Source: an uncultured Acidobacteriota bacterium (GTDB lineage Bacteria > Acidobacteriota > Thermoanaerobaculia > Multivoradales > JAGPDF01). Taken from it: a stretch of 64,000 nt of DNA. The position numbers and the translations under genes are program-made. Of the stretch, positions 3,773-63,137 are shown piece after piece. The DNA is taken from assembly GCA_963781755.1 (NCBI GenBank), contig CAWAGZ010000008.1, positions 16,153 to 80,152 on the forward strand, written 5' to 3'. The first letter of the stretch is position 1, and the number at the start of each line of letters is the position of its first letter. The notes beneath the pieces were generated by a model. The model worked only from the letters and a program-made list of their open reading frames with translations. It did not search any database and was not told where the DNA came from.

Positions 3773-5542
3773 TCAGACGGAGACGCTCTCGTCGCGCACG
3801 CCGCCGGCGAAGATGCGCCAAGTGGTGACCTTCTCGTCGATCTCGCGCAGGCGCTTGGCGATCAGCCGGCAGAGCAGCTTCAGGAACTCGAGCGAGGCCT
3901 CGGGGTCGAGCGCGAGCATCTCCTGAATCGTCCCCTGGTCGAGGGAGAGGACCGTGACCGGTCCGCCGTGGGCGCGGGCGTCGGCCGACCGGGGCTCGCC
4001 GTCGATCAGCGACATCTCGCCGAAGAAGTCGCCGCGCTCGAGGATCGCGAGGGCCTCCTCGCCGGCCCCCGGGATGTACTTCGAGATCAGCACCTTGCCG
4101 TCGAGCACGACGTACATCTCGTGGCCCTCGTCGCCCTCCTCGAACAACGCGCTGCCGGATTCGAAGCGCAGCTCGCGCGAGAAGTTGGCGAGCGTGGTCA
4201 GCTCTTTGCCCGAGAGCCCCTGCTCGCGCAGCATGCGCATCTTCTCCTCGCTCGGGACGTCGATGGTGCCGGAGACCGTCTCCCGCGCGCGCCGCAGGCG
4301 CAGGAAGTTCTCCGGCTGCTTGTCCGAAGCGAAGAAGGTCTTGAGCTGCTCGTTCGTGGCCCGCAGCTTGCCGGCCAGCGAGTGCCACAGGCCCCAGTAG
4401 ATCTGGACCCCGAACTCTGCCCAGTGCTGCGCCTGGCCGGCCATCGCCTCGCCGTCGAAGCGCAGCATGCGCGCGGCCTTGGAGACCAGCGCGTCGCCCG
4501 AGCGCGGACCCGACGCCACGAATCCGACCTCGCCGAACACCGAGCCCGGCTTGAGGATGGCGAGCGGGAAGGTGCCGTAGGGCGTCGGGCGCTGGATGGC
4601 GACCTCGCCCTCGTCGAGCAGGTAGAAGTCGGTTCCCACCGAGAGGTGGGCGAAGACGAGCGTACCCGCCTCGAGCGATTCCTCGCTCACCGAGGAGGAG
4701 AGCTTGAAGATCTGCTCGTCGGTCAGGTGCGACCAGGTCTCGCAGCGGCGCAGGCGCGAGGCGATCGAGAGTCGCCCCTGGGATCCCTCGGAAGTGGGCG
4801 ACGGCACGTCGGCCAGCGCGTCGGCGTCGTGGAAGCGCTCGCGCCGCCACTGCAACCGGTCGAAAGCGATGTGCAGGACGTCCTCGCGGTCGCGGAGCAG
4901 GCCGCTGACCTGGTGCGACTGCCACCCGAGCAGGTGGCGCAGGGTGCGAATGCGCCGGCGAAGACGAATGGCGCGCTCCTCTTCGGTCGAGGGCAGGAGG
5001 AGGAAGGCGTCGATGGTCGCGGACATGGCGTCGACATACTGTCGCCGCTCGTATTCGACCTGTCCCAGCAGCTCGGCGGCCTCTCGGTCGAAGGGGTTGA
5101 AGCGCAGCGCCTGGCGCAGCTGCTCGGCGGCGGCGTCGAAGTCCTGCAGGTGGTAGTGCAGGCGGCCGGCGAGCTTGAAGGCGCTGGGGGAGATGGGGTC
5201 CTTCGCGCGCGCGATCTCGAGGCACTCGAGAGCGCGGTACTCCTCCCCCTTCTCCGCGTAGAGCCAGGCCAGCCCGACGAAGTGCGAGGCGTCGATCGCC
5301 GCCCGCCTCAGCTCGTCACGCAGGACGTCGACCGGGTCCTTGTCGCTGTTGGTGTGGGACTGGGCGCGCTTGAGCTTGCGCAGCCGGGCGACCGCCAACC
5401 GGAGCCCGAGGTCCTGTGGCTCGAGGCGCAGCGCGAGGCCGAACAGCTCGATCGCCTCCTCGAATCGCTTGCGGTCGGCGAAGCGTCTCGCGAGGGCGAC
5501 GAGCTCTTCCAGGTCGGGAGAGCCGGTGGGTCGTTCGGTCAT
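3773..5542 (-). CDS. TPR-repeat protein with two C-terminal cyclic-nucleotide-binding (cNMP/CAP-type) domains
   Basis: ORF-track frame 3773..5713. Start chosen at internal Met (MTERPTGSPDLEEL) at 5540-5542 because the longer form would run into the divergent gene. Two FGE(M/V)...GxxRSA-like cNMP-binding signatures (FGEVGFV..., FGEMSLIDGEPRSADARA). Confidence 0.7.
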   Translation of the reverse strand: MTERPTGSPDLEELVALARRFADRKRFEEAIELFGLALRLEPQDLGLRLAVARLRKLKRAQSHTNSDKDPVDVLRDELRRAAIDASHFVGLAWLYAEKGEEYRALECLEIARAKDPISPSAFKLAGRLHYHLQDFDAAAEQLRQALRFNPFDREAAELLGQVEYERRQYVDAMSATIDAFLLLPSTEEERAIRLRRRIRTLRHLLGWQSHQVSGLLRDREDVLHIAFDRLQWRRERFHDADALADVPSPTSEGSQGRLSIASRLRRCETWSHLTDEQIFKLSSSVSEESLEAGTLVFAHLSVGTDFYLLDEGEVAIQRPTPYGTFPLAILKPGSVFGEVGFVASGPRSGDALVSKAARMLRFDGEAMAGQAQHWAEFGVQIYWGLWHSLAGKLRATNEQLKTFFASDKQPENFLRLRRARETVSGTIDVPSEEKMRMLREQGLSGKELTTLANFSRELRFESGSALFEEGDEGHEMYVVLDGKVLISKYIPGAGEEALAILERGDFFGEMSLIDGEPRSADARAHGGPVTVLSLDQGTIQEMLALDPEASLEFLKLLCRLIAKRLREIDEKVTTWRIFAGGVRDESVSV

Positions 5543-5600: not shown

Positions 5601-6074
5601 ATGTCGAACGAGTCCGTGGACGCCTCGGCCCTGGCCGCGAAAGGGGTCTCCCTGTGTCGCGAGGGGGACTGGGACCGCGGTCTCGCGCTGCTCAGCGCCG
5701 CGGCCGAGGGCAAGAGCTCCGGCGAGGAGCTGCCGGGCGTCGTCTACTCGTTCCTGGGATACGGGATCGCCGCCCATCAGCGCCGCGCCAAGGACGGGCT
5801 GCGGCTGTGCGAGCACGCGGTCAAGATCCAGTACTACGAGCCCGACAATCACATGAACCTGGCGCGGGTCCAGCTCCTGATGTCGGACCGCAAGGCGGCG
5901 GTCAGCTCGATCGCCCGCGGCCTCAAGCTCAACCCCAACCACAGAGGTCTCAAGGATCTGCGGGTCGAGATCGGCGTGCGCAAGCGCCCGGTCCTGCGCT
6001 TCCTCTCGCGCACCAATCCGATCAACGTCCTGCTCGGCCAGCTGCGCAACTTCCTGCGCTCCAGGAACGACTGA
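5601..6074 (+). CDS. small TPR-like protein, divergent from the TPR/cNMP gene
   Basis: 157-aa ORF with helical-repeat composition; 58-bp divergent intergenic region. Confidence 0.45.
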   Translation: MSNESVDASALAAKGVSLCREGDWDRGLALLSAAAEGKSSGEELPGVVYSFLGYGIAAHQRRAKDGLRLCEHAVKIQYYEPDNHMNLARVQLLMSDRKAAVSSIARGLKLNPNHRGLKDLRVEIGVRKRPVLRFLSRTNPINVLLGQLRNFLRSRND

Positions 6075-6123
6075 ATCCGGTGCGCCTGACGGTGGGGCCG
6101 CGGCGCACTCTTCGCCGCGAAGG

Positions 6124-6218
6124 CCTTTTTGAAGGGAAAGGCTCCCGAGCCGAGACGCCTCGGGACCGGGAGCGCAGGCGGAGGTCCCGGTCCTTCCCTT
6201 CCATGGCAGCTTCTGTCG
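6124..6218. repeat. ~95-bp structured intergenic repeat (copy 1): inverted arms TGAAGGGAAAGG / CCTTCCCTTCCA around an internal hairpin, followed by GCAGCTTCTGTC tail
   Basis: Seen directly. Same architecture recurs at 31178-31275, with partial copies at 12541-12805 and 39572-39601. Sits between convergent 3' ends (TPR gene + / pstB -). Confidence 0.6.
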
Positions 6219-6265
6219 GATCGGACTCCAGGATGCGATCGACGGAGTGGCCCGACTCGGTCGCC

Positions 6266-7174
6266 TCAGCCGAAGCGGCCGGTGACGTAGTCCTCGGTCT
6301 TCTTCTGGGCGGGGTTGGTCATCACCGTGGCGGTGTCGTTGAACTCGATCAACTCGCCCAGAAAGAGGAAGGCCGTGTAGTCGGAGATGCGCCCGGCCTG
6401 TTGCAGGTTGTGGGTGACGATCGCGACGGTGTAGTCCGCCGCCAGCTCGCGTACCAGCTCCTCGATCGCGGCGGTCGCGATGGGGTCGAGGGCCGAGGTC
6501 GGCTCGTCGAGCAGGAGGACTTCGGGCTTGACCGCGATCGCGCGCGCGACGCACAGCCGCTGTTGCTGACCGCCCGACAAGCCGCGGCCGGTCTGCTTGA
6601 GCTTGTCCTTGACCTCCTCCCACAGCGCCGCCTTGCGCAGCGCCCATTCCACGCGCTCGTCCATGTCGGCCGGGCGCAGGCGCTCGTAGAGCCGCACGCC
6701 GAATGCGATGTTGTCGTAGATCGACATCGGAAACGGAGTGGGCGCCTGGAAAACCATGCCGACCTTGCGTCGCAGCAGGTTGAGGTCGTAGCCGGAGTCG
6801 AGGACGTTCTCGCCGTCGAGCAGGACCCGGCCCTCGGCGCGCTGTCTGGGATAGAGCTCGAACATCCGGTTCATGGTCCGTAGCAGCGTCGACTTGCCGC
6901 AGCCGGAGGGGCCGATGAAAGCGGTGACCCGGCGCGTGTAGATCGTCAGGTCGATGCCCTTGAGCACCTGCTGCTTGCCGTAGAAGAACTTCAGCGCGTC
7001 GACGACGATTCTCGGCTCGAGCGGGCCGGCGTCGGTGACGAGCGGAGCGGCTCCGAGCGAATCGGGAGCGGGAGCGGCCGATTCGACGCGGTTGCCGAGC
7101 TCCGTCGGCGACACCCCGTCGGCGCCTGCTCCGGGTGCCCGGGGCTCGGTCCGGTTCTCGAGAGGGGAAGCCAT
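6266..7174 (-). CDS. pstB: phosphate ABC transporter ATP-binding protein PstB, with a low-complexity N-terminal extension
   Basis: Walker [10 protein letters not shown], signature LSGGQQQRL, Walker [12 protein letters not shown]; very PstB-like over ~250 aa. Confidence 0.95.
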
Positions 7175-11130: not shown

Positions 11131-11164
11131 GAAAAATGCGGGGGAGGCCCCGAGGCGAGGGGCC
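11131..11164 (-). terminator. candidate intrinsic terminator downstream of the porin gene (GGCCCC-loop-GGGGCC stem followed by T5 on minus strand)
   Basis: Seen directly ~70 nt downstream of the porin stop. Confidence 0.45.
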
Positions 11165-11232
11165 CCCCCCGACCGAGGGAGGGCGTCGGTGCGGCGACGG
11201 GCGGACCGCCGCCGCACCGGCGAGCCCGAGGA

Positions 11233-12294: not shown

Positions 12295-12540
12295 GACTCT
12301 CCTCCTCCGATGTGAGGTCGAAATCCGGGGGTTCGCGTCGGCCGCCGCCGTCGGGCGCGCGGCCGTCGTCGGATCGGGAGAGACACTAGGCCGGACGCGC
12401 GATCGGCGCGGCGACACCCGAGTGACAGGCCTGCGACACGCGGACGCGCCGCCTCTCCGCTCGCCGGGTCCGGAGACCCGGCGGAAGGCTTGGTGCGGGA
12501 GTCAGCCCCTGGCGGTGGACGCCGCGCCGTTGTCGTCGCT

Positions 12541-12805
12541 GACAAGACTTTCTGATGAAGGGAAAGACCTGCGGGAAGATCGCTTCGGGTCCGGAGCCGG
12601 CGGCCGGAGCCCGCGCTCCTCCCTGGAAAGACCTTCTGTTGAAGGGAAAGGAACCCGGGATCGTTGCCTCGGAGCCCGCGGCGGGGCCAGTGCCCGAGGC
12701 CTTCCGCTCCTGGAGAACAGCGATCGGACCTGGCTTCGCGGCCTGCGGTGCCGGCCCCGGTTCCTAGCCGTTCCGATCGATGGAAGCTTCTACTTCGTCT
12801 CTTCT
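12541..12805. repeat. cluster of partial copies of the TGAAGGGAAAG(G)ACC / GGAAGCTTCT intergenic repeat family (copies at ~12553-12569, ~12636-12654, ~12775-12800)
   Basis: Seen directly in the 557-bp gap between the phoR-like 3' end and the porin 5' end. Confidence 0.5.
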
Positions 12806-12851
12806 GGAGGCTGAACGCGAAGCGGCGGGACCGTCTTCCTGGCTCGGGCCT

Positions 12852-30570: not shown

Positions 30571-30778
30571 AAGGCAACTCCATGGTGCTCAACGCGTTAC
30601 GCTCAAGTCCGTGGACCGATTGAAGAAAGCGCTGCGCAACCGGGCACCACTTTTCCACAGCGACCGGTGACGGGCCGGTAACGGCGGCCGTAAATCTTTG
30701 CAACGCTTCGTCTTGACAGCCCGAGCGGGCGGCGGTTACCGTCCCGTCAGTGGTCCCCGGACCGGCGGAGGCTGGAGC

Positions 30779-31096
30779 ATGACGATGACGACGCTCGCGA
30801 CGATCCGCTCGTATCTGATCTTCACCGGCACCGGTCCGATCCTCGTGCTGTCGACCTATCCCGAGCTGCGCGACCCGCGGCTGCTCGCCAAGCTCCAGTA
30901 CAAGGGCATCTCGAAGTTCATCGCCTACGAGGTCGCGCTCGACGCGGTCAAGAACCGCTACGAGCACGCCTACGGCAACATCGCGCACGATCTCGACGAG
31001 GTCGAGGACATCCGCGTGCTCGACTTCAACGGCCACCAGATCATGGCCAACTTCTCGCTCGACGAGCTCGGCGACCCGATCAAGTTCGGCGGCTGA
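30779..31096 (+). CDS. hypothetical small protein (105 aa), no recognised domain
   Basis: ATG at ~30779 preceded by GGAGG; N-terminal hydrophobic stretch; ORF-track frame 30698..31096. Confidence 0.4.
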   Translation: MTMTTLATIRSYLIFTGTGPILVLSTYPELRDPRLLAKLQYKGISKFIAYEVALDAVKNRYEHAYGNIAHDLDEVEDIRVLDFNGHQIMANFSLDELGDPIKFGG

Positions 31097-31177
31097 CCGC
31101 CGCCGGGTGCTGGCGGCACTCCGCGCGAACCCGCGGCGCATCGCGATCCACGGTCTCGCAGGCTCGCAGCAGCGACT

Positions 31178-31275
31178 TCCATTGAAGAGAAGACCTCGGG
31201 TCCAGGCCCGCGCCGCGAGACTCGAGGCGCCGTTCCGGCTGCGGTCCTTTCCATCATTGGAAGCTTCTGTCTCTC
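31178..31275. repeat. ~95-bp structured intergenic repeat (copy 2): arms TGAAGAGAAGACC / GGTCCTTTCCATCA + TTGGAAGCTTCTGTC tail
   Basis: Collinear with the copy at 6124-6218; sits between convergent 3' ends (hypothetical + / maf -). Confidence 0.6.
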
Positions 31276-31306: not shown

Positions 31307-31945
31307 TCAGGTTGCGCGGCTCGATCTCCGCCGGCCCCGTCCGGGGCCGGCGGCCGAAAAGCCCATCTCGGCCAGCAGCTGCCCGACCAGCGTGAGCGGC
31401 AGGCCGACGACGTTGTCGTAGTCCCCGTCGACGTGGTCGACGAAGGCGGCGGCGCCGCCCTGGATGGCGTAGGCGCCGGCCTTGTCGAGCGGCTCCCGAC
31501 CGGCTGCGTAGGCCGCGATCTCCTTTGCGCCGAGGCGGCGGAATGTGACCTCGGTGCGGCAGGCGCGGGCGAGCTCGCGGGCGACGGTGCCCGGGGCGCC
31601 GGACCGGACGACGGCGACGCCGGTCCAGACGTCGTGGCGGCGGCCCGAGAGCCGGTGCAGCATCCGCTCGGCCTCGGCCGCGTCGGCCGGCTTGCCGAGC
31701 AGCTCGCCGTCGACGGCGACCACCGTGTCGGCGCCGATCACGATCTCGCCGGTCCGGGCCGCGGCGATCGCCTTGGCGCGGGCCAGACGCAGGGCGAGAC
31801 GCTCGGGCGGTTCACCGGCTCGCGGAGTCTCGTCGGCGTCCACCGGGCGGACCTCGAACTCGAGGCCGAGTCGGAGGAGCAGGTCGCGCCGGCGGGGCGA
31901 CGCCGAGGCCAGGACGAGCCGCGGCGGACCGGGACTTCCGCTCAC
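31307..31945 (-). CDS. maf: Maf-like nucleoside triphosphate pyrophosphatase (septum formation protein Maf)
   Basis: GTG start (VSGSPGPPRLVLASASPRRRDLL…); Maf signature LASASPRR; start overlaps the stop of the upstream VWA gene (GTGA). Confidence 0.85.
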   Translation of the reverse strand: MSGSPGPPRLVLASASPRRRDLLLRLGLEFEVRPVDADETPRAGEPPERLALRLARAKAIAAARTGEIVIGADTVVAVDGELLGKPADAAEAERMLHRLSGRRHDVWTGVAVVRSGAPGTVARELARACRTEVTFRRLGAKEIAAYAAGREPLDKAGAYAIQGGAAAFVDHVDGDYDNVVGLPLTLVGQLLAEMGFSAAGPGRGRRRSSRAT

Positions 31946-33745
31946 GGGTAGTAGCCGGTCGCGGTGCGCACCGTGACGCCGGGCCGGTCGACCGCGACCT
32001 CGACCTTGCGGTACCCGTCGCCCCCGGGCGAGTCCGACTGGTAGGCGAGCAGATACTGCGAGCGCAGGTCCTTCTCGATCTCCTCGTAGATCGGCCCCAG
32101 GCGACTGGCGCGGTCGACGCGGAAGGAGCGCCCCCCGGTCTCGCGTGCCAGGCGGTCGAGGGCGACGCCCGCGGTGGGCGGATGGGTCGGGACGTCGAGG
32201 CCGATGGCGTAGATCGCCACGCCGCTGCGCCGGGCGTAGTCGAGGACGTCGTCGAACCGGGTGCGGCTGTTCGAATCCTGGCCGTCGGAGATCAGGATCA
32301 GGGCGCGCTTGCCGCTCAGTCCCGCGAAGTAGTGGAGGGTGAAGGCGAGGCTGTCGTAGAGGGTGGTCTCGCCCTCCGCACGGAGGTCGGCGAGCCCTCC
32401 CGCGAGCCGGTCCAACCGGCCCGTGAACTTGACCGCGAGGCGCGGCGAATCCGCGAACGTGATCACCGCGGCCCGGTCGAGGGGGGTCAGGACCTGCTCG
32501 AAGAAGCGCAGCGCCGCGCGCTCGGCCTCCTGGAGCTCGGCCGCCATCGAGCCGGAGGTGTCGAGCATGACCGCGGCGTGGATCGGCACGTCGCCGATCT
32601 TCTCCAGGCGCAGCAGCTTCTCGGGACGTCCGTCCTCGCGGATCTCGACCTCCTCGGGCCGGAGATCGTCGACGGGTCGGCCGTGACGGGCGAGGACGGT
32701 GGCGAACAGCTCGACGAGGTCGACGTCCACCTGATCGTTCGTCGCCCCCGCGGCGCCGAGCGTGCGCACGGCCTCCGCCGCGCCGCCGCCGGCGAGGAAG
32801 GCGACGGCGCGGATCCACGTGATCGGAGCTTCGGCGGGCGTCTCGAGTTGCTGGACGAAGGGCGGTTGGAAGAGCGTGGCGCGCAGCTCGCCGCCGACGC
32901 GGAACTCGACCCGGTCGAGCGTCCTCGCCCTCGGGCACCGCGACGGCGGCGCGCGCCTCGACGGCGCCGGGGGCCGGCACGGCGGGTTCCGCCAGCGACA
33001 GCCGGACCGCGAAGCGTTGCGGTCCGGCGTTGAGCGTCGCCTCGTCGCGCGCCAGCTCGGCGCCGCCGGAGTCGAGCGCGACCGCCGCGACCCGATGCAG
33101 CCTGGGGCTCGACCCGAGGTCCAGCTCGACGGTCCACGGCGGACGGCTCCGGGTCATCACGCGGTGGCCGTCGAGCTCGAAGCCGACGCGGTCCACCCGG
33201 TCCCCCCGCACGTCGGCGTCGAATCGGACCTTGCCGGTCAGCAGCTCGCCGACCGGCGCGAGGAGGCGGACGGCTGCTCCCTCCCCGGTGGCCGTCGTCG
33301 CCGTGGCGGGCGCACCCGGGACGTCGAGCTCGCGCGACTCGCGGTGGCACCTCCCGGTCGCCTCCTCCTCGAGCGCCAGCTGCATCCGGTAGTGGCCGGC
33401 CGGCAGCCGGCGCAGGAATTCCAGTCGCACCGGATCGGCGGACGGCGGCGGCGAGAAGCGGTAGCGGAAGCCCTCGATCCGGCGGTCGCCGCGGACGATC
33501 TCGCCGTCGAGACGGTAGGCGCCCGGCCCGGCCTCCGCCTCCCGGCCGGCCGTGCCGGTCAGCGTCAGCGTGCCTTCGACCCGGGTGCTGGCGGAGCCGC
33601 GGTCGGTGAAGGCGACCGAGAGGACGGCGTCGAGCTTCGGGGCGTTGGCGGGGCAGGGTCCGGCGGTGGGCTCCGGCGCGGTCGTCGCCGCCGGGAGCCG
33701 ACCCGGTACCGCCAGCAGGAGCAGCAGGGTGACGAGGGCGCGCAT
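31942..33745 (-). pseudogene. VWA-domain secreted protein (Acidobacterial VWFA-related family, paralog of 33803..36340), with an apparent +1 frameshift near 32915-32930
   Basis: N-terminal part in frame of ORF 31307..33745 (signal peptide MRALVTLLLLLAVPG…), C-terminal VWA part in frame of ORF 31942..32769. Alignment to the intact paralog (…VEVPEDSSLDRVEF…) shows the shift at PEGEDA|LDRVEF. Confidence 0.7.
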
Positions 33746-33802: not shown

Positions 33803-36340
33803 TCAGGGGTAGTAGCCGCGCATGGTCTTGGCCTCCAGGCCGGGGCGGTCGACCTTGACCTCGACGGTGCGGAACTTCGTGTCCTGGTTGGTGTTGGTGG
33901 ACTGATAGGCGAGCAGGAAGCGGGAGCGCAGCTCCTTCTGGATCGCGTCGTAGACCGGCGGCAGGTCGCTCGCCTTCTTGACGAAGAAGCTGCGCCCGCC
34001 GGTCTCGTCGGCGAGGCTCTTGAGCACCTTGCGGGTCTCGAACTCGGTGCGCCCGATGTCCAGGCCGATGGTGTAGATCGCCACCCCGGCGTGGCGCGCG
34101 AAGTCGAGCGTCTGGTCGAAGGTGAAGCGGCTGTTCTCGTCCTTGCCGTCGGAGAGCACGAGCAACGCGCGCTGGCCCTTGAGGCCGTTGAAGTAGAACA
34201 GGCCGAAGACGACCGAGTCGTAGAGCGACGTGCCGCGTTCCGCCTTGAGGCCCGCCAGGCCGCCGGCCAGATCCTCGATCCGGTTGGTCATCTTGACCGC
34301 CAGGGTCGGCCGGTCGTTGAACGGGATCAGGGCGGCGCGGTCGCGCGGCGTGATGGCCTGCTGGAAGAAGCCCAGGGCGGCCTGGCGCGCGACGTCGAGG
34401 CTGGGCTCCATCGAGGCCGAGGTGTCGAGCAGCACGGCGACGTGGATGGGCAGGTTCTGGAGCTGCTCGAAGCGGACGAGCTTCTGCGGCACGCCGTCCT
34501 CGGCGACGGCGAAGGCGTCGCGGGGCAGGTCGGAGACCGGGTGTTTCGCTCGGTCCACCACGGTGGTGTAGAGCTCGACGAACTGGACGTCGACCTCCTC
34601 GAGGTTCTCGGGCGCGTTGACGAAGACCAGGTCCTCGGTCGAGTTGCCGTCGGTCAGGTAGGCGACCGCGCGGACGTAGGCGATCTGACTCTCGGGGGGC
34701 AGGACGATCGGTTGGGTGAACGGCTCCTGGTAGAGCGTCGCGACCAGCGTCTCGTTGAGGTAGAACTCGACCCGGTCGAGCGAGGAGTCCTCGGGGACCT
34801 CGACCTGGGCTTCGGCGCGCAGGCTCGAGCGGTAGCGCTTCCCGCGCCGGGGCTCGATCAGGCGGATCGAGAAGCGGTGCGCGCTGGCGTTCAGCAGGGC
34901 CTGGTCGGAGGCGACCTCGTGGCCGGCGGCGTCGTAGGCGGTGGCGGTCAGGGTCCGCGTGCGGGGCACCTGTCCGAGGTCGAGCTCGACCGAGAACGGC
35001 GGGCGGTTCTTGCGCAGGATCGGCTTACCGTCGATCGCGAACTCGACCTCGGAGATGTCCGGTCCGGTGGTCAGCGTGTCGAAGCGCTCGAGGCCCGACT
35101 GCATCTGACCGCTGGGCTCGACGATCTTGATCGTGTTGTCCAGCGTCGAGAGCGCGGCGTTGGCCTCGGTCAGGAGACGGGCGGTCTGGTCGTCGGCCGG
35201 CGGCGGCAGCGGCTCCGTGGACTCGGGCACCGCGAGCGGACGCTCGGCGCGGAAGTACTTGTCGCCGTTCAGGTCCTCGACCTTGACGATCAGGGTGTAG
35301 TCCTCGCCGGGGCGCAGGAAGCGCTCGAAGACGAGCGGTATCGAGTCGGATTCGATCTGCGAGGCGGGGAAGTCGAACTTGTAGCGGAAGGTGTCGAACA
35401 GCTTGCCGCGCAGCAGGACCTCGCCGTTGAGCAGGAAGTTGTAGGAGTGGCTGCCCGCGATGTCGGCGGTGCCCGCGGCGTCGGCGGGGATCGCCACCGT
35501 GCCCTGGACGACGGTCCGGCTCTGGCGACGGCCGGGGAAGGCGAGGGTGAGGTCGCCGGGCAGCTCGCCGGCTCCCTCCGGGACGTCGGTCGAGTAGGAG
35601 TTGAAGGTCGAGACCCACTCTCGCGAGGGCCCCTGGATCGGCTTCAGCGCCACCGCGATGAGATTGGCGTAGTCGAGCTGTCCGCGATTCAGGACGGCGC
35701 TGACCGCAGCGGCCATCCGGTCGGCGCGCACGCAGCTATTGCTGATCTGGTCGATCAGGTCGTACGCCGAGGTGTTGGGAGCGGCTGCCTGGAAGAGCTT
35801 GCCGACGCCGTCGGCGGGCATCCAGAGCCGCCAGTCCCCGCGGCCGAAGGGCTGGTAGAAGACCAGCACCAGCACCTCCCGGACCCGCTCGCTGGGCGGG
35901 TAGATCCAGGCTTCCGTGGGCCACAGCAGCACGCCGCAGGTGTCCACCTGGCGTAGCGCCGGCGCACCGTTGAGCAGGTACATCCGAGCGCGCACGTCGT
36001 CGAGGGTGCCGAACTCCTGCCGGGCCTCCTCGACGCGCGCGGACCAGCTCTCGCGCAGCTCGTTGCGGGCGGTGTCCGGGTAGGGGTCGCGGACCCGCCA
36101 GAAGCTCTCGATGAAGGCGTCGCGCTGGTAGTCCTTCTCGAGCTTGAGGAACGCCTCGCGCTCCTCCTTGGTGATCAGCGGCGCCACCTCCTGGAGCCAC
36201 TCCCGATAGGTCTGCGGGAGGTTGGCTACCGCCTGGCGCTCCTCGGCCTTCTTGCCCGCACCGGCGGGCACGACGACGACGAGGGCGGCCACCGCGGCCA
36301 GAGCCGCGACGGCGCGCCGGATCCGCGCGCGCGATCGCAT
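33803..36340 (-). CDS. VWA-domain secreted protein with large N-terminal Acidobacterial VWFA-related domain (TIGR03436-like)
   Basis: Signal peptide MRSRARIRRAVAALAAVAALVVVVPAGA; C-terminal VWA with MIDAS DTSASM…; ends …KTMRGYYP like its paralog. Confidence 0.8.
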   Translation of the reverse strand: MRSRARIRRAVAALAAVAALVVVVPAGAGKKAEERQAVANLPQTYREWLQEVAPLITKEEREAFLKLEKDYQRDAFIESFWRVRDPYPDTARNELRESWSARVEEARQEFGTLDDVRARMYLLNGAPALRQVDTCGVLLWPTEAWIYPPSERVREVLVLVFYQPFGRGDWRLWMPADGVGKLFQAAAPNTSAYDLIDQISNSCVRADRMAAAVSAVLNRGQLDYANLIAVALKPIQGPSREWVSTFNSYSTDVPEGAGELPGDLTLAFPGRRQSRTVVQGTVAIPADAAGTADIAGSHSYNFLLNGEVLLRGKLFDTFRYKFDFPASQIESDSIPLVFERFLRPGEDYTLIVKVEDLNGDKYFRAERPLAVPESTEPLPPPADDQTARLLTEANAALSTLDNTIKIVEPSGQMQSGLERFDTLTTGPDISEVEFAIDGKPILRKNRPPFSVELDLGQVPRTRTLTATAYDAAGHEVASDQALLNASAHRFSIRLIEPRRGKRYRSSLRAEAQVEVPEDSSLDRVEFYLNETLVATLYQEPFTQPIVLPPESQIAYVRAVAYLTDGNSTEDLVFVNAPENLEEVDVQFVELYTTVVDRAKHPVSDLPRDAFAVAEDGVPQKLVRFEQLQNLPIHVAVLLDTSASMEPSLDVARQAALGFFQQAITPRDRAALIPFNDRPTLAVKMTNRIEDLAGGLAGLKAERGTSLYDSVVFGLFYFNGLKGQRALLVLSDGKDENSRFTFDQTLDFARHAGVAIYTIGLDIGRTEFETRKVLKSLADETGGRSFFVKKASDLPPVYDAIQKELRSRFLLAYQSTNTNQDTKFRTVEVKVDRPGLEAKTMRGYYP

Positions 36341-39457: not shown

Positions 39458-39740
39458 AGCTGGGCGCAGCACGCGGACGCCGCCGCGCGGCGGCGCGACA
39501 GAGACTTGCAGTGATGGTGGGGGGTGACCGGTCGCCGGCGGTGGCTGGCGGCAGCTCGCCGGGCGCACTCTCCGTTCCCTTCATTGGAGGTTTCGTTCTC
39601 GAGGGCGCGCACGGATTCGTTGCGGCGCCTCGAATCGAAGCGCGCTGGGAGGAGCTGTTTCCGGAGGACCCGCGCACCGGCGGGTCCGGCGCGCCGGGCT
39701 TCGTGACGGCGGTCTCGGGCCGGGATAGGGTGAGGCTCCG

Positions 39741-43182: not shown

Positions 43183-43686
43183 ATGAGCTCCACCGATCGA
43201 AATCGTTGGCTGTTCGCCGGGGCGGCGATGACCGTCGCGCTCGCGGCCTGGTTCGCGCTGTCGCCGCTGAGGGCCGCGGAGTCGCAGGCCGTCCCGGCCG
43301 CGGGGACGGCGACCACGGCGTCGCCGGCACCGGAGTCCGGCGAGGCCGGTTGCTGCTGCTGTCGTCACCGGGCGGCGGAGGGGAAGGCCGCCGACTGCCC
43401 GCGTCACGGCGAGGGGAAGGCGATGGATTGCCCGCGTCAGGGCGAGGGGAAGGGGATGGACTGCCCGCGCCACGGCGCAGAGAAGGGCATGGACTGCCCG
43501 CGGCACGACGCAAAGGGTGAGGCCGGTGCGGGGATGCACCACCGCCACCACGCCGCGCAGGCGGCGAAGGCCGACGGAGGTTGCTGCCGCTGTGCGGGGC
43601 ACGGCGGCGAAGGCTGCGATCGCAAGGGCGGCGCGGACACCGGCGGGAAGCCGGCGGCACCCGCTCCGCCGGCCGCGCCGAACTGA
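43183..43686 (+). CDS. secreted Cys/His/Met-rich tandem-repeat protein (putative metal-binding)
   Basis: ATG ~43183 after GGGAGAGAGA. Signal/TM MSSTDRNRWLFAGAAMTVALAAWFALSPLRA. CCCC, then 4 x 11-aa repeats (A/M)DCPR(H/Q)G(E/A)xKGM, then HHRHH and GGCCRCAGHGGEGCDRKG. 12 Cys, >10 His in ~130 mature residues. Confidence 0.6.
   Translation: MSSTDRNRWLFAGAAMTVALAAWFALSPLRAAESQAVPAAGTATTASPAPESGEAGCCCCRHRAAEGKAADCPRHGEGKAMDCPRQGEGKGMDCPRHGAEKGMDCPRHDAKGEAGAGMHHRHHAAQAAKADGGCCRCAGHGGEGCDRKGGADTGGKPAAPAPPAAPN
43393..43521 (+). repeat. 4 x 33-bp perfect-to-near-perfect tandem direct repeats (gactgcccgcgtcacggcgaggggaaggcgatg …) inside the Cys/His-rich CDS
   Basis: Seen directly; in-frame, no spacers (not CRISPR). 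Confidence 0.85.
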
Positions 43687-43789
43687 GTCTCGAGAGGTCG
43701 ATTCACGGGCGGGGGGCGCTCGGCGCCTCCCGCCCCTTCGCGATCGGGCCGCTCCGTCGTAACCTCGGCGCGACAGATCCGGAGCGCAG

Positions 43790-45898
43790 ATGGACGACCG
43801 CGAAGAATCCCACGACGGCGAGGCATCGGCCGATCCGGCGTACGCGCCGACCGAGGCCCTGTCGGCGCCCACCGCCCCGACGCTGCACCTCTCCGACCCG
43901 GCTCCGCCGGCCGCCGGCACGGCGCCGACGGTCCTGCTGCCGGAGCCGCCGGCGGCCGCGGGCGCGGAAGGCTCCGCCGCGACCGGCGGCTCGACCGCCG
44001 ACGAGGCGTTGCCCGCGGGACCGGGAGCCGACCGCGATCTCGAGCTGCTCTCCCGGCAGACGCGCTTCCGGATCGAGAAGCTGCTCGGCGAGGGCGGGAT
44101 GGGCAAGGTCTACCGCGCGTTCGACACCGAGCTCGCGCGGCCGGTGGCGCTCAAGGTGCTCTTCGCCTCCGATGGCGAGGCGGATGCCCGTTTCGCGCGC
44201 GAAGCCCAGGCCCAGGCGCGGGTCGACCACCCGCACGTCGGCAAGGTCTACGAGACCGGCGCGATCGGCGGTCGGCGCTACATCGTCATGCAGCTGATCC
44301 CGGGCGAGACCCTCGACCGCGCCGGCGCCGCGATGACCCTCGAGCAGAAGGTCCTGGCCGTGCGGCGGGTCTGCGAGGGCGTCCACGCGGCGCACCGGAT
44401 CGGCCTCGTCCACCGCGACATCAAGCCGTCGAACATCCTCGTGGCGCGCACCGAGGAAGGGGAACATCACCCCTACGTCCTCGACTTCGGCATCGCCCGC
44501 GACCTCGAGGCGGGGCAGACGGCGACCTCGGCGGTCGTCGGCACGCCCTGGTACATGGCGCCCGAGCAGGTCGCCGCCGGCGCCGTCGACCGGCGCACCG
44601 ACGTCTACGCGCTCGGGGTCACGCTCTACCAGCTGCTCAGCGGCAAGCTGCCGATCACCGGCACCGGGTCGGTGGACGTTCTGGTGCGGGTGCTCCGCGA
44701 AGAGCCGGTGCCGCTGATGGTGGCGGACCCGAAGCTGCCCGCGGATCTCCAGACCGTGGTCATGAAGTGCCTCGAGAAGGACCCCGTCCGCCGCTACGAC
44801 TCGGCGCGCGCCTTGGCCGAAGACCTCGGCCGGTTCCTCGACGGCGAGCCGGTGGCGGCGCGTCCGGCGACCTTCGGCTACCGGCTGGCCAAGAAGGTGC
44901 GCAAGCACCGCACGCTGGTCGCGGTGGCGGCGTCGGCGCTGGCCGTGGTCGCGGTGGTGGGCGTCCTCGCGCTGCGCGACTCCTTCCGCGCGCGGCGCCT
45001 CGAGTCGCTCTCGGCGAGCTACGGCGCGGAGGCGGAGCGCTTCGAGTGGATGCTGCGCGCCGAGCGCCAGATGCCCCTGCACGACACTCGTCCGCTCGAG
45101 ACCCGGCTGCACGAGCGCCTGAGCGGCGTCCGCTCGGAGGTCGACCAGCTTCCACCTTCAGAGCGCGGACCCGGGCTCTACGCCCTGGGGCGCGGCGAGC
45201 TGGCGCTGGGCAACGTGGCCGAAGCCGAGGACCTGCTGGACCAAGCGTGGAAGCTGGGCAACCGGGGGCCCATGGTGGCCTACTGGCGCGGCAAGGCGAA
45301 GGCCTTGACGCTCAAGCGCGACCTCGACCACGCGCGATCGCGGACGCACGGCGAGGAGCGGGCCCAGGCGATCGAGGAGGTGATGCGCCGGGACCGCGAA
45401 GCGGCGGTGGCGTCGCTCCAGGCCGGAGGCGCGAGCTCGCTCGAGGGCGAGGACTACGGCCGGGCGCTGCTCGAGTGGGCCGAGGGGCGGCCGCGCGTGG
45501 CGATCGACCTCGCGGCGCGGCAGCTCGAGCGGCTGCCCTTCTTCTACGACGCCCGGATCCTGATCGGCGACGCCGAGCTGGAGCTCGCCCGCGCCGAAGG
45601 AGCCTCGGCCGAAGAGAGCTCGGCTGCGCTGGAACGGGCGCGGGAGGCCTACGGCGCCGCCGCGGCGATCGGGGCCAGCGACCCCCGCCCCTACCAGCGC
45701 CTGTGCGAGCTCGGCCTCGAGCGGGCCCGGACCGCCACCGCGGCGGACGAGCGGCGGAGCGCGGCCGAGGAGGCGCTGGCGAGCTGCGACCGGGCGCTGG
45801 TCGCCGACGCCACCGACGAGCTGGCGATCGAGACGCGCAGCGCGGTGCGGGAGTTCCTGGACGGGGTCAGTCGCGCGGAATCTCGCGGTCCAGGTTGA
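43790..45898 (+). CDS. Ser/Thr protein kinase with one TM helix and C-terminal helical-repeat (TPR-like) domain
   Basis: GxGxxG-like LLGEGGMGKVYRA, VALK, HRDIKPSNIL, DFGIA, GTPWYMAPE; TM TLVAVAASALAVVAVVGVLAL. Confidence 0.85.
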   Translation: MDDREESHDGEASADPAYAPTEALSAPTAPTLHLSDPAPPAAGTAPTVLLPEPPAAAGAEGSAATGGSTADEALPAGPGADRDLELLSRQTRFRIEKLLGEGGMGKVYRAFDTELARPVALKVLFASDGEADARFAREAQAQARVDHPHVGKVYETGAIGGRRYIVMQLIPGETLDRAGAAMTLEQKVLAVRRVCEGVHAAHRIGLVHRDIKPSNILVARTEEGEHHPYVLDFGIARDLEAGQTATSAVVGTPWYMAPEQVAAGAVDRRTDVYALGVTLYQLLSGKLPITGTGSVDVLVRVLREEPVPLMVADPKLPADLQTVVMKCLEKDPVRRYDSARALAEDLGRFLDGEPVAARPATFGYRLAKKVRKHRTLVAVAASALAVVAVVGVLALRDSFRARRLESLSASYGAEAERFEWMLRAERQMPLHDTRPLETRLHERLSGVRSEVDQLPPSERGPGLYALGRGELALGNVAEAEDLLDQAWKLGNRGPMVAYWRGKAKALTLKRDLDHARSRTHGEERAQAIEEVMRRDREAAVASLQAGGASSLEGEDYGRALLEWAEGRPRVAIDLAARQLERLPFFYDARILIGDAELELARAEGASAEESSAALERAREAYGAAAAIGASDPRPYQRLCELGLERARTATAADERRSAAEEALASCDRALVADATDELAIETRSAVREFLDGVSRAESRGPG

Positions 45899-62365: not shown

Positions 62366-62490
62366 GGAGAGGCCCCGATGCTAGAGAAGGCGGGCGGAAA
62401 ACGAAAGCGGGAGCCCCTGGAGGGACTCCCGCGAGATCGGGCGACCGGGGCCGGAGGCGGGATCCGCCCCCACCTCCGGGTCACGCGCCG

Positions 62491-62943
62491 TCACTTGATC
62501 GCGATCTTGTGCGGCTTCGACTCCTCCTGCCTGGGCAGGGAGATGGTCAGCACGCCGTGCTCGAACCGGGCCGCGATCTGATCGGTCCGGACCGTCGCCG
62601 GCAGCGTGAAGGAGCGGCTGAAGCTCCCGTACGAGCGCTCCACGCGGTGGAAGGTCTCGCCCTTGGCCTCCTTCTCGAGCTTGCGCTCACCGGAGAGGGT
62701 CAACACGTTGTTCTCGACCGTGATCGAGACGTCGTCCTTGGTCAGTCCGGGCAGCTCGGCGGTGAGGGTCAGCGCCTCGCCGCTCTCACGGATGTCGACC
62801 GGCGGAGCCCAGACGTGAGCCGAGTACTCCTCGGAGCCGGCGCCCGGTCCCCAGAGGTCGTGCAGCATCTCGTTGAACATGCGGTCCATGCGCCCGCGGA
62901 CCAGGTTGGCCTCGGGGTTCCAGCGAATCAGTCCAGTCGTCAT
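62491..62943 (-). CDS. Hsp20/alpha-crystallin family small heat-shock protein
   Basis: Start at MTTGLIRWNPE… (cat at 62941-62943, AAGGAG RBS); alpha-crystallin domain …AELPGLTKDDVSITVENNVLTLSGER…GVLTISLP…. Confidence 0.9.
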   Translation of the reverse strand: MTTGLIRWNPEANLVRGRMDRMFNEMLHDLWGPGAGSEEYSAHVWAPPVDIRESGEALTLTAELPGLTKDDVSITVENNVLTLSGERKLEKEAKGETFHRVERSYGSFSRSFTLPATVRTDQIAARFEHGVLTISLPRQEESKPHKIAIK

Positions 62944-63024
62944 GGTTTTCTTTCTCCTTTCGGTTCGTATCGTCGGGCGCTCCCCGAATGGGGCCAACGC
63001 CTTTCATGCTCTTTTAACGCTTAG

Positions 63025-63076
63025 ATTTTCGCACACATTTCAGGCGGTGTCAAATTTCTTAGTAGAAGTCGCTAAG
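63025..63076 (-). promoter_or_regulatory. candidate sigma70-type promoter for hsp20 (-35 TTGACA at 63053..63048, 17-bp spacer, -10 GAAAAT at 63030..63025) with adjacent inverted repeat CTTAG-N9-CTAAG (63058-63076). Lies in the AT-richer divergent region shared with the downstream kinase gene.
   Basis: Seen directly on the minus strand; region is conspicuously AT-rich for this genome. Confidence 0.4.
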
Positions 63077-63137
63077 ATCATTTAAGTACAGCGTTTGGAA
63101 TGGTTTGTGCTTCCAGGACCGCCGGGAGAGTGGTATC

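Follow-up and report, generated by a model that had tools for sequence, protein, structure and literature searches.

A family of box-bounded intergenic repeats in a narrow group of Thermoanaerobaculia

The window, i.e., the whole 64,000-nucleotide stretch of DNA analyzed here, has a GC content of 72% and contains, at four intergenic loci, six modules that belong to a single repeat family. The repeat unit of this family is a ~28-nt purine-rich box, and the boxes form AT-richer patches of the window. In the general plan of a module, a box, (G)ACAGAAGCTTCCAtNGAAGGGAAAGACC, is separated by 35-60 nt of GC-rich interior from an inverted box, commonly found in the variant form CCTTTCCCTTCAACAGAAGGTCTT. 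The copies are confined to intergenic DNA, have hairpin potential, and have homologs at non-syntenic sites in other genomes. The family itself is restricted to a narrow group of Thermoanaerobaculia and has a patchy distribution there. Nearly all knowledge of Thermoanaerobaculia comes from metagenome-assembled genomes (MAGs), and no repeat family described for this group was found in a literature search. The family is probably a lineage-restricted set of non-coding dispersed repeats, that is, REP/BIME-REPIN- or MITE-type selfish DNA.

Boxes and modules in the window

The arm TGAAGGGAAAGGACC, searched for as a 15-mer with no more than three mismatches, has seven matches in the window versus 0.83 expected, and this count was reached by none of 100 shuffles. 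Five of the seven matches fall within the loci listed in an earlier reading made from the letters alone (herein referred to as the sequence-only reading). A profile search with nhmmer, based on 26 arms, located eight boxes in the window, all of them in the four intergenic spacers and none in coding sequence; non-coding DNA, which holds all eight, makes up ~10% of the window. The sequence-only reading had proposed an intergenic repeat family. Its repeat sequences were found where it had placed them, and the proposal itself is borne out by the shuffle control and the profile census.

The modules are ~90-160 nt long and are bounded by inverted boxes of ~25-30 nt; those consisting of an inverted pair with an interior measure ~95-110 nt. 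Three arrangements of boxes were found: inverted pairs around a GC-rich interior, head-to-tail strings of modules, and short tandem arrays. Each box carries a small internal dyad of 4-5 bp, CTTC N4 GAAG. Eleven modules from three genomes can be aligned over their full length, including the interior, and the interior motif ...CCCGAGGC... is common to the aligned modules. Thus, whole modules are homologous, not the ends alone. The architecture of arm, GC hairpin, and inverted arm described in the sequence-only reading holds, whereas the TTGGAAGCTTCTGTC stretch set apart there as a tail belongs to the ~28-nt box, of which it forms the outer half. Likewise, the cluster of copies at 12541-12805 is real but consists of two full modules (C and D) and a half module (E) rather than partial copies, and the supposed partial copy at 39572-39601 belongs, as the right arm, to a complete module of ~105 nt (F). 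The following features were found in the window:

6097-6130, plus strand: GC hairpin followed by TTTTT, adjoining module A; terminator-like for the plus-strand ORF
6113-6220, minus strand: module A, full (nhmmer 75 bits; MFE -49.7 kcal/mol)
6126-6144: right box of module A
6187-6216: left box of module A, GACAGAAGCTGCCATGGAAGGGAAGGACC on the minus strand
12536-12625, minus strand: module C, directly abutting module D (nhmmer 64 bits)
12541-12571: right box of module C, the left box of which is strongly degenerate
12621-12729, minus strand: module D, full (nhmmer 76 bits), with a degenerate left box, GTTCTCCAGGAGCGGAAGGCC
12627-12651: right box of module D, CCTTTCCCTTCAACAGAAGGTCTTTCC on the minus strand
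12725-12800, minus strand: half module E, left box and GC-rich hairpin, its own right box being absent (E=0.0011)
12764-12791: left box of half module E, GTAGAAGCTTCCATCGATCGGAACGG
31167-31274: module B, full (MFE -50.3, z = -3.2), of ambiguous orientation because both arms are of the left-box type
31171-31197 and 31241-31271: the two arms of module B
39497-39601, plus strand: module F, full (MFE -53.3, z = -3.2, 0 of 200 shuffles)
39497-39529: left box of module F, degenerate, GACAGAGACTTGCAGTGATGGTGGGGGGTGACC; missed in the sequence-only reading
39572-39594: right box of module F, followed by TTTCGTTC (E=0.011)

Modules E, D, and C are arranged head to tail. Most modules fold as one long imperfect hairpin, which either strand can form, with MFE values from -36 to -56 kcal/mol and a folding z-score of -2 or lower for four of eight modules; in module A, the GC-rich interior forms two hairpins. 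The T-run at 6097-6130 is the mutated outer edge of the right box of module A, which reads CTTCTGTT in the loci L119 and L120 of a close relative.

Module A lies between a TPR-like ORF (5601-6074, plus strand) and pstB (6266-7174, minus strand). Module B lies between an ORF at 30698-31096 (plus strand) and a maf-containing ORF ending at 31307 (minus strand). The gene coordinates therefore agree with the earlier observation that these two copies, the only ones then considered full, are located between convergent gene ends. They agree also with the placement of further copies in the phoR/porin spacer and downstream of the mnmA-TonB_C gene: E-D-C are located in the 557-nt spacer from the phoR stop codon (12852) to the porin ATG (12294), and module F comes after the end (39457) of the mnmA-TonB_C gene. 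Three of the four loci belong to a large cluster of genes for phosphate metabolism (pstSCAB-phoU, phoR, ppx, PHO4, ppk, CHAD, and a phoB-type regulator), which spans the surrounding 6-30 kb of the window. For the PhoU protein of the window, no exact protein match is on record. Across the copies, the insertion sites include three convergent, four tandem, and one divergent spacer. Most copies are located at gene 3' ends, not at promoters, and these sites fit tolerated positions.

A Pho-box-like direct repeat, TGTCGCAGGCCTGTCAC, was found at 12422-12438 on the minus strand. It has two TGTCnC half-sites 11 bp apart, is located ~128 nt upstream of the porin ATG, and is kept in L119 and L120. The direct repeat is likely to be the PhoB-dependent promoter of the porin gene and is separate from the repeat modules. 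As E-D-C are located upstream of it, these modules follow phoR and are outside the porin leader. The box of the repeat family was rejected as a Pho box itself, having a single CTGTC only, with the two-repeat site lying apart from it.

Some additional features were observed in the window. Four tandem 33-nt repeats (GAGGGGAAGGC...GACTGCCCGCG...CA.GGC) at 43378-43509 may encode a Cys-containing peptide repeat. Two adjacent paralogous genes for VWA-domain proteins (31942-33745 and 33803-36340) are ~67-75% identical at the DNA level in several blocks; this gene pair is the source of the repeat families D6, D13, and D19 and of secondary blastn matches. A patch of 45% GC at 62950-63100, upstream of the hsp20 gene (62491-62952, minus strand), contains a promoter-like site, TTGACA-N17-GAAAAT, with a long leader, and a strong intrinsic terminator is located by the same gene at 62407-62432.

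Copies in relatives and in other contigs

By its PstB homologs, the window belongs to Thermoanaerobaculia. The close relative, 97-99% identical to the window, was represented by the loci L119, L120, and L167. It keeps module A and E-D-C (L119/L120) as well as module B (L167) at orthologous sites. In the ortholog of module A, the interior is identical and the left box has five changes; module C is conserved in L119/L120, and the ortholog of module B in L167 is 98% identical. An extra copy, herein referred to as L120x, was found between divergent genes at positions 19945-20055 of L120. Module F is located in a segment that cannot be aligned with L167. In total, ~5 loci were found in ~68 kb of the window species (the window together with L119/L120/L167), or ~1 locus per 14 kb; the hundreds of copies genome-wide predicted in the sequence-only reading would be an extrapolation from this density. 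With 65-79% identity between copies of one genome, nothing points to recent bursts.

No copies are present in ~120 kb from six Thermoanaerobaculia genomes that are more distant (L121-L123 and L168-L172), and the sites orthologous to A (L121/L122 and L123) and B (L168) are among those that lack the family. The spacer at pstB is 192 nt long with the element in the window versus 38 nt without it in L121/L122, and in L123 another gene follows 15 nt after pstB. The spacer at maf is 211 nt long in the window, whereas in L168 maf and its neighbor overlap. No clean empty site was found at the orthologous sites of these relatives. The spacers there are unrelated or missing, so ordinary intergenic turnover could also have produced the differences. 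The non-syntenic full-length copies described below, the orthologs in the close relative, and the absence from the distant genomes support the earlier suggestion of a REP/MITE-like family specific to this lineage.

In module A, the left box of the window (6187-6216) differs from that of L120 (10959-10988 in L119/L120) at five positions. Within ~260 nt around the same module, the differences between L119 and L120 are two left-box positions (GGG/GGA and ATC/ATA). These left-box differences could be due to gene conversion, to a genuine hotspot, or to nanopore errors where a motif is modified. In the boxes of A and B together, 11 of 109 positions differ between the window and the close relative, compared with 8 of 295 in the rest of the spacers. 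With all three spacers considered, i.e., with E-D-C included, the divergence is 15.6% for boxes versus 14.9% for the rest. A faster evolution of the boxes was thus rejected, as it reaches significance only with the strongly diverged C/D/E spacer excluded. This phoR-porin spacer (12440-12851 in the window, 4305-4760 in L120) is ~25% diverged, compared with a genome average of ~3% and with 2-7% for the spacers at A and B.

Two other differences from the close relative were observed. The segment 38705-39815, which is not alignable with L167 at the DNA level, includes the part of the mnmA-TonB_C fusion that encodes the C-terminal linker and TonB_C, together with the downstream spacer containing module F. 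The C-terminal part of the protein is 41% identical between the two genomes and the flanks are ~97% identical; the segment looks like an allelic replacement. In addition, the window has a ~2.1-kb segment (43735-45862) with a gene for a 702-aa Ser/Thr protein kinase (43790-45898), whereas L167, otherwise 95-98% identical, has only ~34 nt at this place, and the difference is thus an insertion/deletion polymorphism.

Full-length homologous copies were also found at non-syntenic places in the high-GC MAG contigs L116, L105, L136, and L165. A search of related DNA with the repeat unit, proposed in the sequence-only reading, detected such copies by blastn: module D matches L116 4267-4362 with 78.6% identity over 98 nt (E=1.4e-13). 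Two full modules are present in L116, a symmetric 160-nt module and a tandem array of boxes (33-nt period, 3.5 copies) in L105, a 200-nt module in L136, and three tandem modules with a 75-nt period in L165; several boxes were found at each of these loci. Inverted dimers are represented by A, B, D, F, L116, L120x, and L136. In L116 and L165, a second conserved module, GGTTGCGCGG..., follows the right box; it was not found outside these two contigs and is therefore a subfamily trait. The neighbors of the copies in other contigs include genes for PagL, Rieske oxidoreductase, pirin, Na/H exchanger, SurE, and an RNase J-like protein. The contig L116 is labeled Solirubrobacterales but encodes the lipid A deacylase PagL and thus comes from a diderm. 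This label is therefore doubtful, and no spread across phyla is claimed.

Most matches in the collection scans were due to chance. A scan of genome contigs with TTCCN{4,7}TGGMAGCTTCTGTC yielded at least 118 loci, and among the matches listed only those in L116 and L105 are real. A scan of metagenomes with CYTTCCCTTCAACAGAARG yielded 43 loci, of which only L136, L165, and perhaps L164 are real. Scans of viral contigs gave chance matches only, all of them in contigs of 29-56% GC, and nothing related to the family was found by plasmid BLAST.

Three observations concern single contigs. A stretch of 25 nt that matches the consensus of the right box exactly was found inside the coding sequence for valyl-tRNA synthetase (L137 845-872, the same as L128 594-621), where it encodes ...KARLSVEGKD... 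and where third-position GC falls to 0.74; it is probably a chance match, although it could be an intragenic copy. In L116, the TAA stop codon (4355-4357) of the Na/H exchanger-TrkA_N ORF is located inside the outer edge of a box (GGGTAAGACC), and the last ~16 codons of this ORF overlap the extension that only the subfamily has, so an insertion may have remodeled the 3' end of the gene. In L105, a perfect 27-nt tandem duplication (5700-5752; two copies of GAGTTTCGGTGCCTGTCCCCGAAATAG) is located at the contig end just after the repeat module.

Explanations for the boxes and hairpins

Dispersed repeats of this kind would owe their spread to an enzyme of the transposase type, with the boxes or the hairpin as its substrate. 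The most plausible enzyme is an IS200/RAYT/TIRYT-like HUH protein, which would be encoded elsewhere in the genome. Copies would persist where insertion is harmless, mostly beside gene 3' ends, and the hairpin together with the following pyrimidine-rich box would probably affect transcripts incidentally, as a barrier to 3' exonucleases or as a weak terminator. The window and the annotated loci of the relatives contain no transposase of any kind, and no RAYT (IS200-like Y1/HUH) gene was found in the window or in L119-L123 and L167-L172. No insertion sequence was found in any locus examined, and there is no candidate parent element. Inspection by eye of the flanks of ten copies revealed no recurrent direct repeat that could be a target-site duplication, the lone candidate being a possible GTGCG repeat at L105 5505/5668.

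The sequence-only reading had named a structured RNA motif, sRNA, or terminator as an alternative. A selected cis-acting RNA, i.e., a 3'-UTR stabilizer or a U-tract-poor bidirectional terminator that needs the box and so keeps it conserved, would agree with the location of A and B between convergent genes, with the 33-52 nt that separate the starts of A, E-D-C, and F from the stop codon of a gene in the same orientation, and with the long hairpins. A crude terminator scan also matches the box regions of A, B, and F, because a pyrimidine-rich box follows the hairpin. However, the search of Rfam suggested in that reading returned no matches at the gathering score and only noise in the E-value mode, and the RNAalifold consensus energy is close to zero (-1.75 kcal/mol). 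The covariation check, made on 11 partly redundant sequences, likewise failed to favor an RNA: in the arm-arm helix, 80% of cells are paired versus 79.8% in shuffles, and no pair is changed on both sides. Neither strand folds consistently better (the reverse one is better in five of nine cases), and no strand asymmetry due to G-U pairs was found. Among modules with distinguishable boxes, three are co-directional with their neighbors (A, D/C, and the first module of L116), two are opposite (the second module of L116 and L136), and one is located between divergent genes (L120x), so no consistent rule of orientation relative to flanking genes was found. No conserved hairpin with a U-tract was detected in the elements: B and C/D/E have no terminator-like sites, a looser scan gives no more than weak 5-bp stems in B and F, and the site at A depends on a mutation specific to the window. 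Ordinary terminators with a GC stem and a U-tract are used elsewhere in the window (11140-11170 and 62407-62432). The divergence of the A and B boxes relative to the rest of their spacers is the opposite of purifying selection, an effect that is gone with the E-D-C spacer included. A selected RNA is thus unlikely.

The boxes could also be sites at which an abundant or a regulatory protein binds DNA (a nucleoid protein, for instance, or a regulator related to phosphate), with the arrays as binding platforms. The share of window loci in the phosphate gene cluster, the small dyad of the boxes, and the regular spacing of the tandem arrays in L105 and L165 point in this direction, but the dyad is lost in the boxes of L165 (CTTCCATGTACGGGAAAG), the copies in other contigs adjoin unrelated genes, and most copies are located away from promoters. 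In addition, the porin promoter already has its separate Pho-box-like repeat, and the boxes of A and B change fast between close relatives when the E-D-C spacer is left out; we consider a binding site of this type very improbable. Neither a selected RNA nor a constrained binding site is supported, and the data fit a DNA repeat family. It is doubtful, but conceivable, that the box is recognized by a nucleic-acid enzyme or a binding protein specific to the lineage, e.g., a TIRYT-like HUH transposase, and that ongoing gene conversion or re-templating preserves the similarity of the copies. Such a process would explain why the A and B boxes differ ~4 times more than their flanks between genomes that are 97-99% identical and why the box variants CCATGG, CCATCG, and CCATAG each recur in other copies. 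If so, box-hairpin-box modules might serve as U-tract-independent, bidirectional 3'-end modules in a lineage with 72% GC. A chance resemblance of AT-richer patches in a 72% GC genome would be in line with the many chance matches of the collection scans and with the high-GC match in the valyl-tRNA synthetase gene (L137/L128). This explanation is refuted by the shuffle control, the full-length alignment of modules, the cross-genome blastn match, and the several boxes per locus in L105, L116, L136, and L165, and retains virtually no probability.

Other candidate functions were also rejected. Small ORFs starting from ATG or TTG in CCA-ATG-AAG-GGA (MEGKD..., MMERT...) lack conservation among the copies and are poor in third-position GC, and the 'ATG' is ATA or ATC in L105, L119, and L136. 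No sigma-70 promoter was found in the elements, most of which are located at gene ends; by inspection, spacing and bases are also unlike those of sigma-54 (TGGCAC-N5-TTGC) and ECF (GGAAC-N16-CGTC) promoters. A CsrA or Hfq sponge was rejected given that a box has only one or two A(N)GGA motifs, that there is no orientation rule, and that the density of copies is too high for sRNA genes. No tRNA- or tmRNA-like element was found. For an integron attC site, there are only near-matches (CTTCAAC and GTTGAAG) to the R''/R' core sites (RYYYAAC ... GTTRRRY), with no intI-like gene or cassette array in the window.

The preferred reading, a family of dispersed repeats, has several implications. The model of boxes and modules flags a source of assembly breaks, mis-called short ORFs, and mis-called gene ends, such as the stop codon inside a box in L116. 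The family can also mark a narrow clade and offers a way to track down the enzyme behind its spread. Within the phosphate gene cluster, operon expression might be affected if mRNA 3' ends are shaped by the elements as well.

Comparison with known repeat classes

Among known repeats, REP/BIME and REPIN elements and the TIR-repeat families of other Acidobacteria come closest to this family; MITEs and BOX elements are similar as well. The REP/BIME elements of Enterobacteria and the RAYT-mobilized REPINs of Pseudomonas are likewise short and extragenic, form singles, hairpin-forming inverted doublets, and clusters, and are distributed patchily among relatives. REP/BIME elements are enriched near gene 3' ends, including those of the pst operon in Escherichia coli. 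The family described here shares with REP/BIME the extragenic location and the occurrence as singles, inverted dimers, and clusters. In contrast to REP, the box lacks the GTAG/CGTC tag: the boxes start with GACAG or GAAAG, and only that of E in the window reads GTAG. The box is also not itself a strong palindrome, unlike the imperfectly palindromic REP unit of 20-40 bp (PMC3733652), having only the 4-5 bp dyad, and the long hairpin needs two boxes. Furthermore, the 35-60 nt interior is homologous between copies, and no RAYT gene was seen in the examined loci.

In the same phylum, families of inverted TIR repeats have been described in Koribacter, Terriglobus, Acidobacterium, and Granulicella together with TIRtrons; the repeats are present as singles, dimers, and clusters and are linked to the RAYT-like TIRYT transposases (Di Nocera et al., 2013, PMC3733652). 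These inverted repeats are unrelated to the GTAG REPs, as are those found here, but their hosts are not Thermoanaerobaculia (PMC3733652). Their common GGGGWSAS motif (PMC3733652) is absent from the box consensus, and only the degenerate arm of F reads GGGGTGAC.

MITEs such as Correia/NEMIS, ERIC/IRU, and RUP are also non-coding units of ~100 bp with inverted ends of ~25-30 nt and one hairpin, are intergenic, and are missing in some relatives. The modules described here resemble them in that inverted boxes bound a short unit that is non-coding, the ORF readings of the copies not being conserved. They differ from MITEs in the lack of target-site duplications, the variable length and number of modules, the tandem arrays of boxes, and the 65-79% identity within a genome. 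The BOX elements of Streptococcus pneumoniae, boxA-boxB(n)-boxC, are likewise modular, with pairing end modules and a variable number of internal modules, but have no sequence relationship to this family and differ in phylum and module sizes. Having neither the GTAG/CGTC tag and palindromic box of REPs nor the target duplications of MITEs, the family is classed as a REP/MITE-like repeat family that is a member of neither class.
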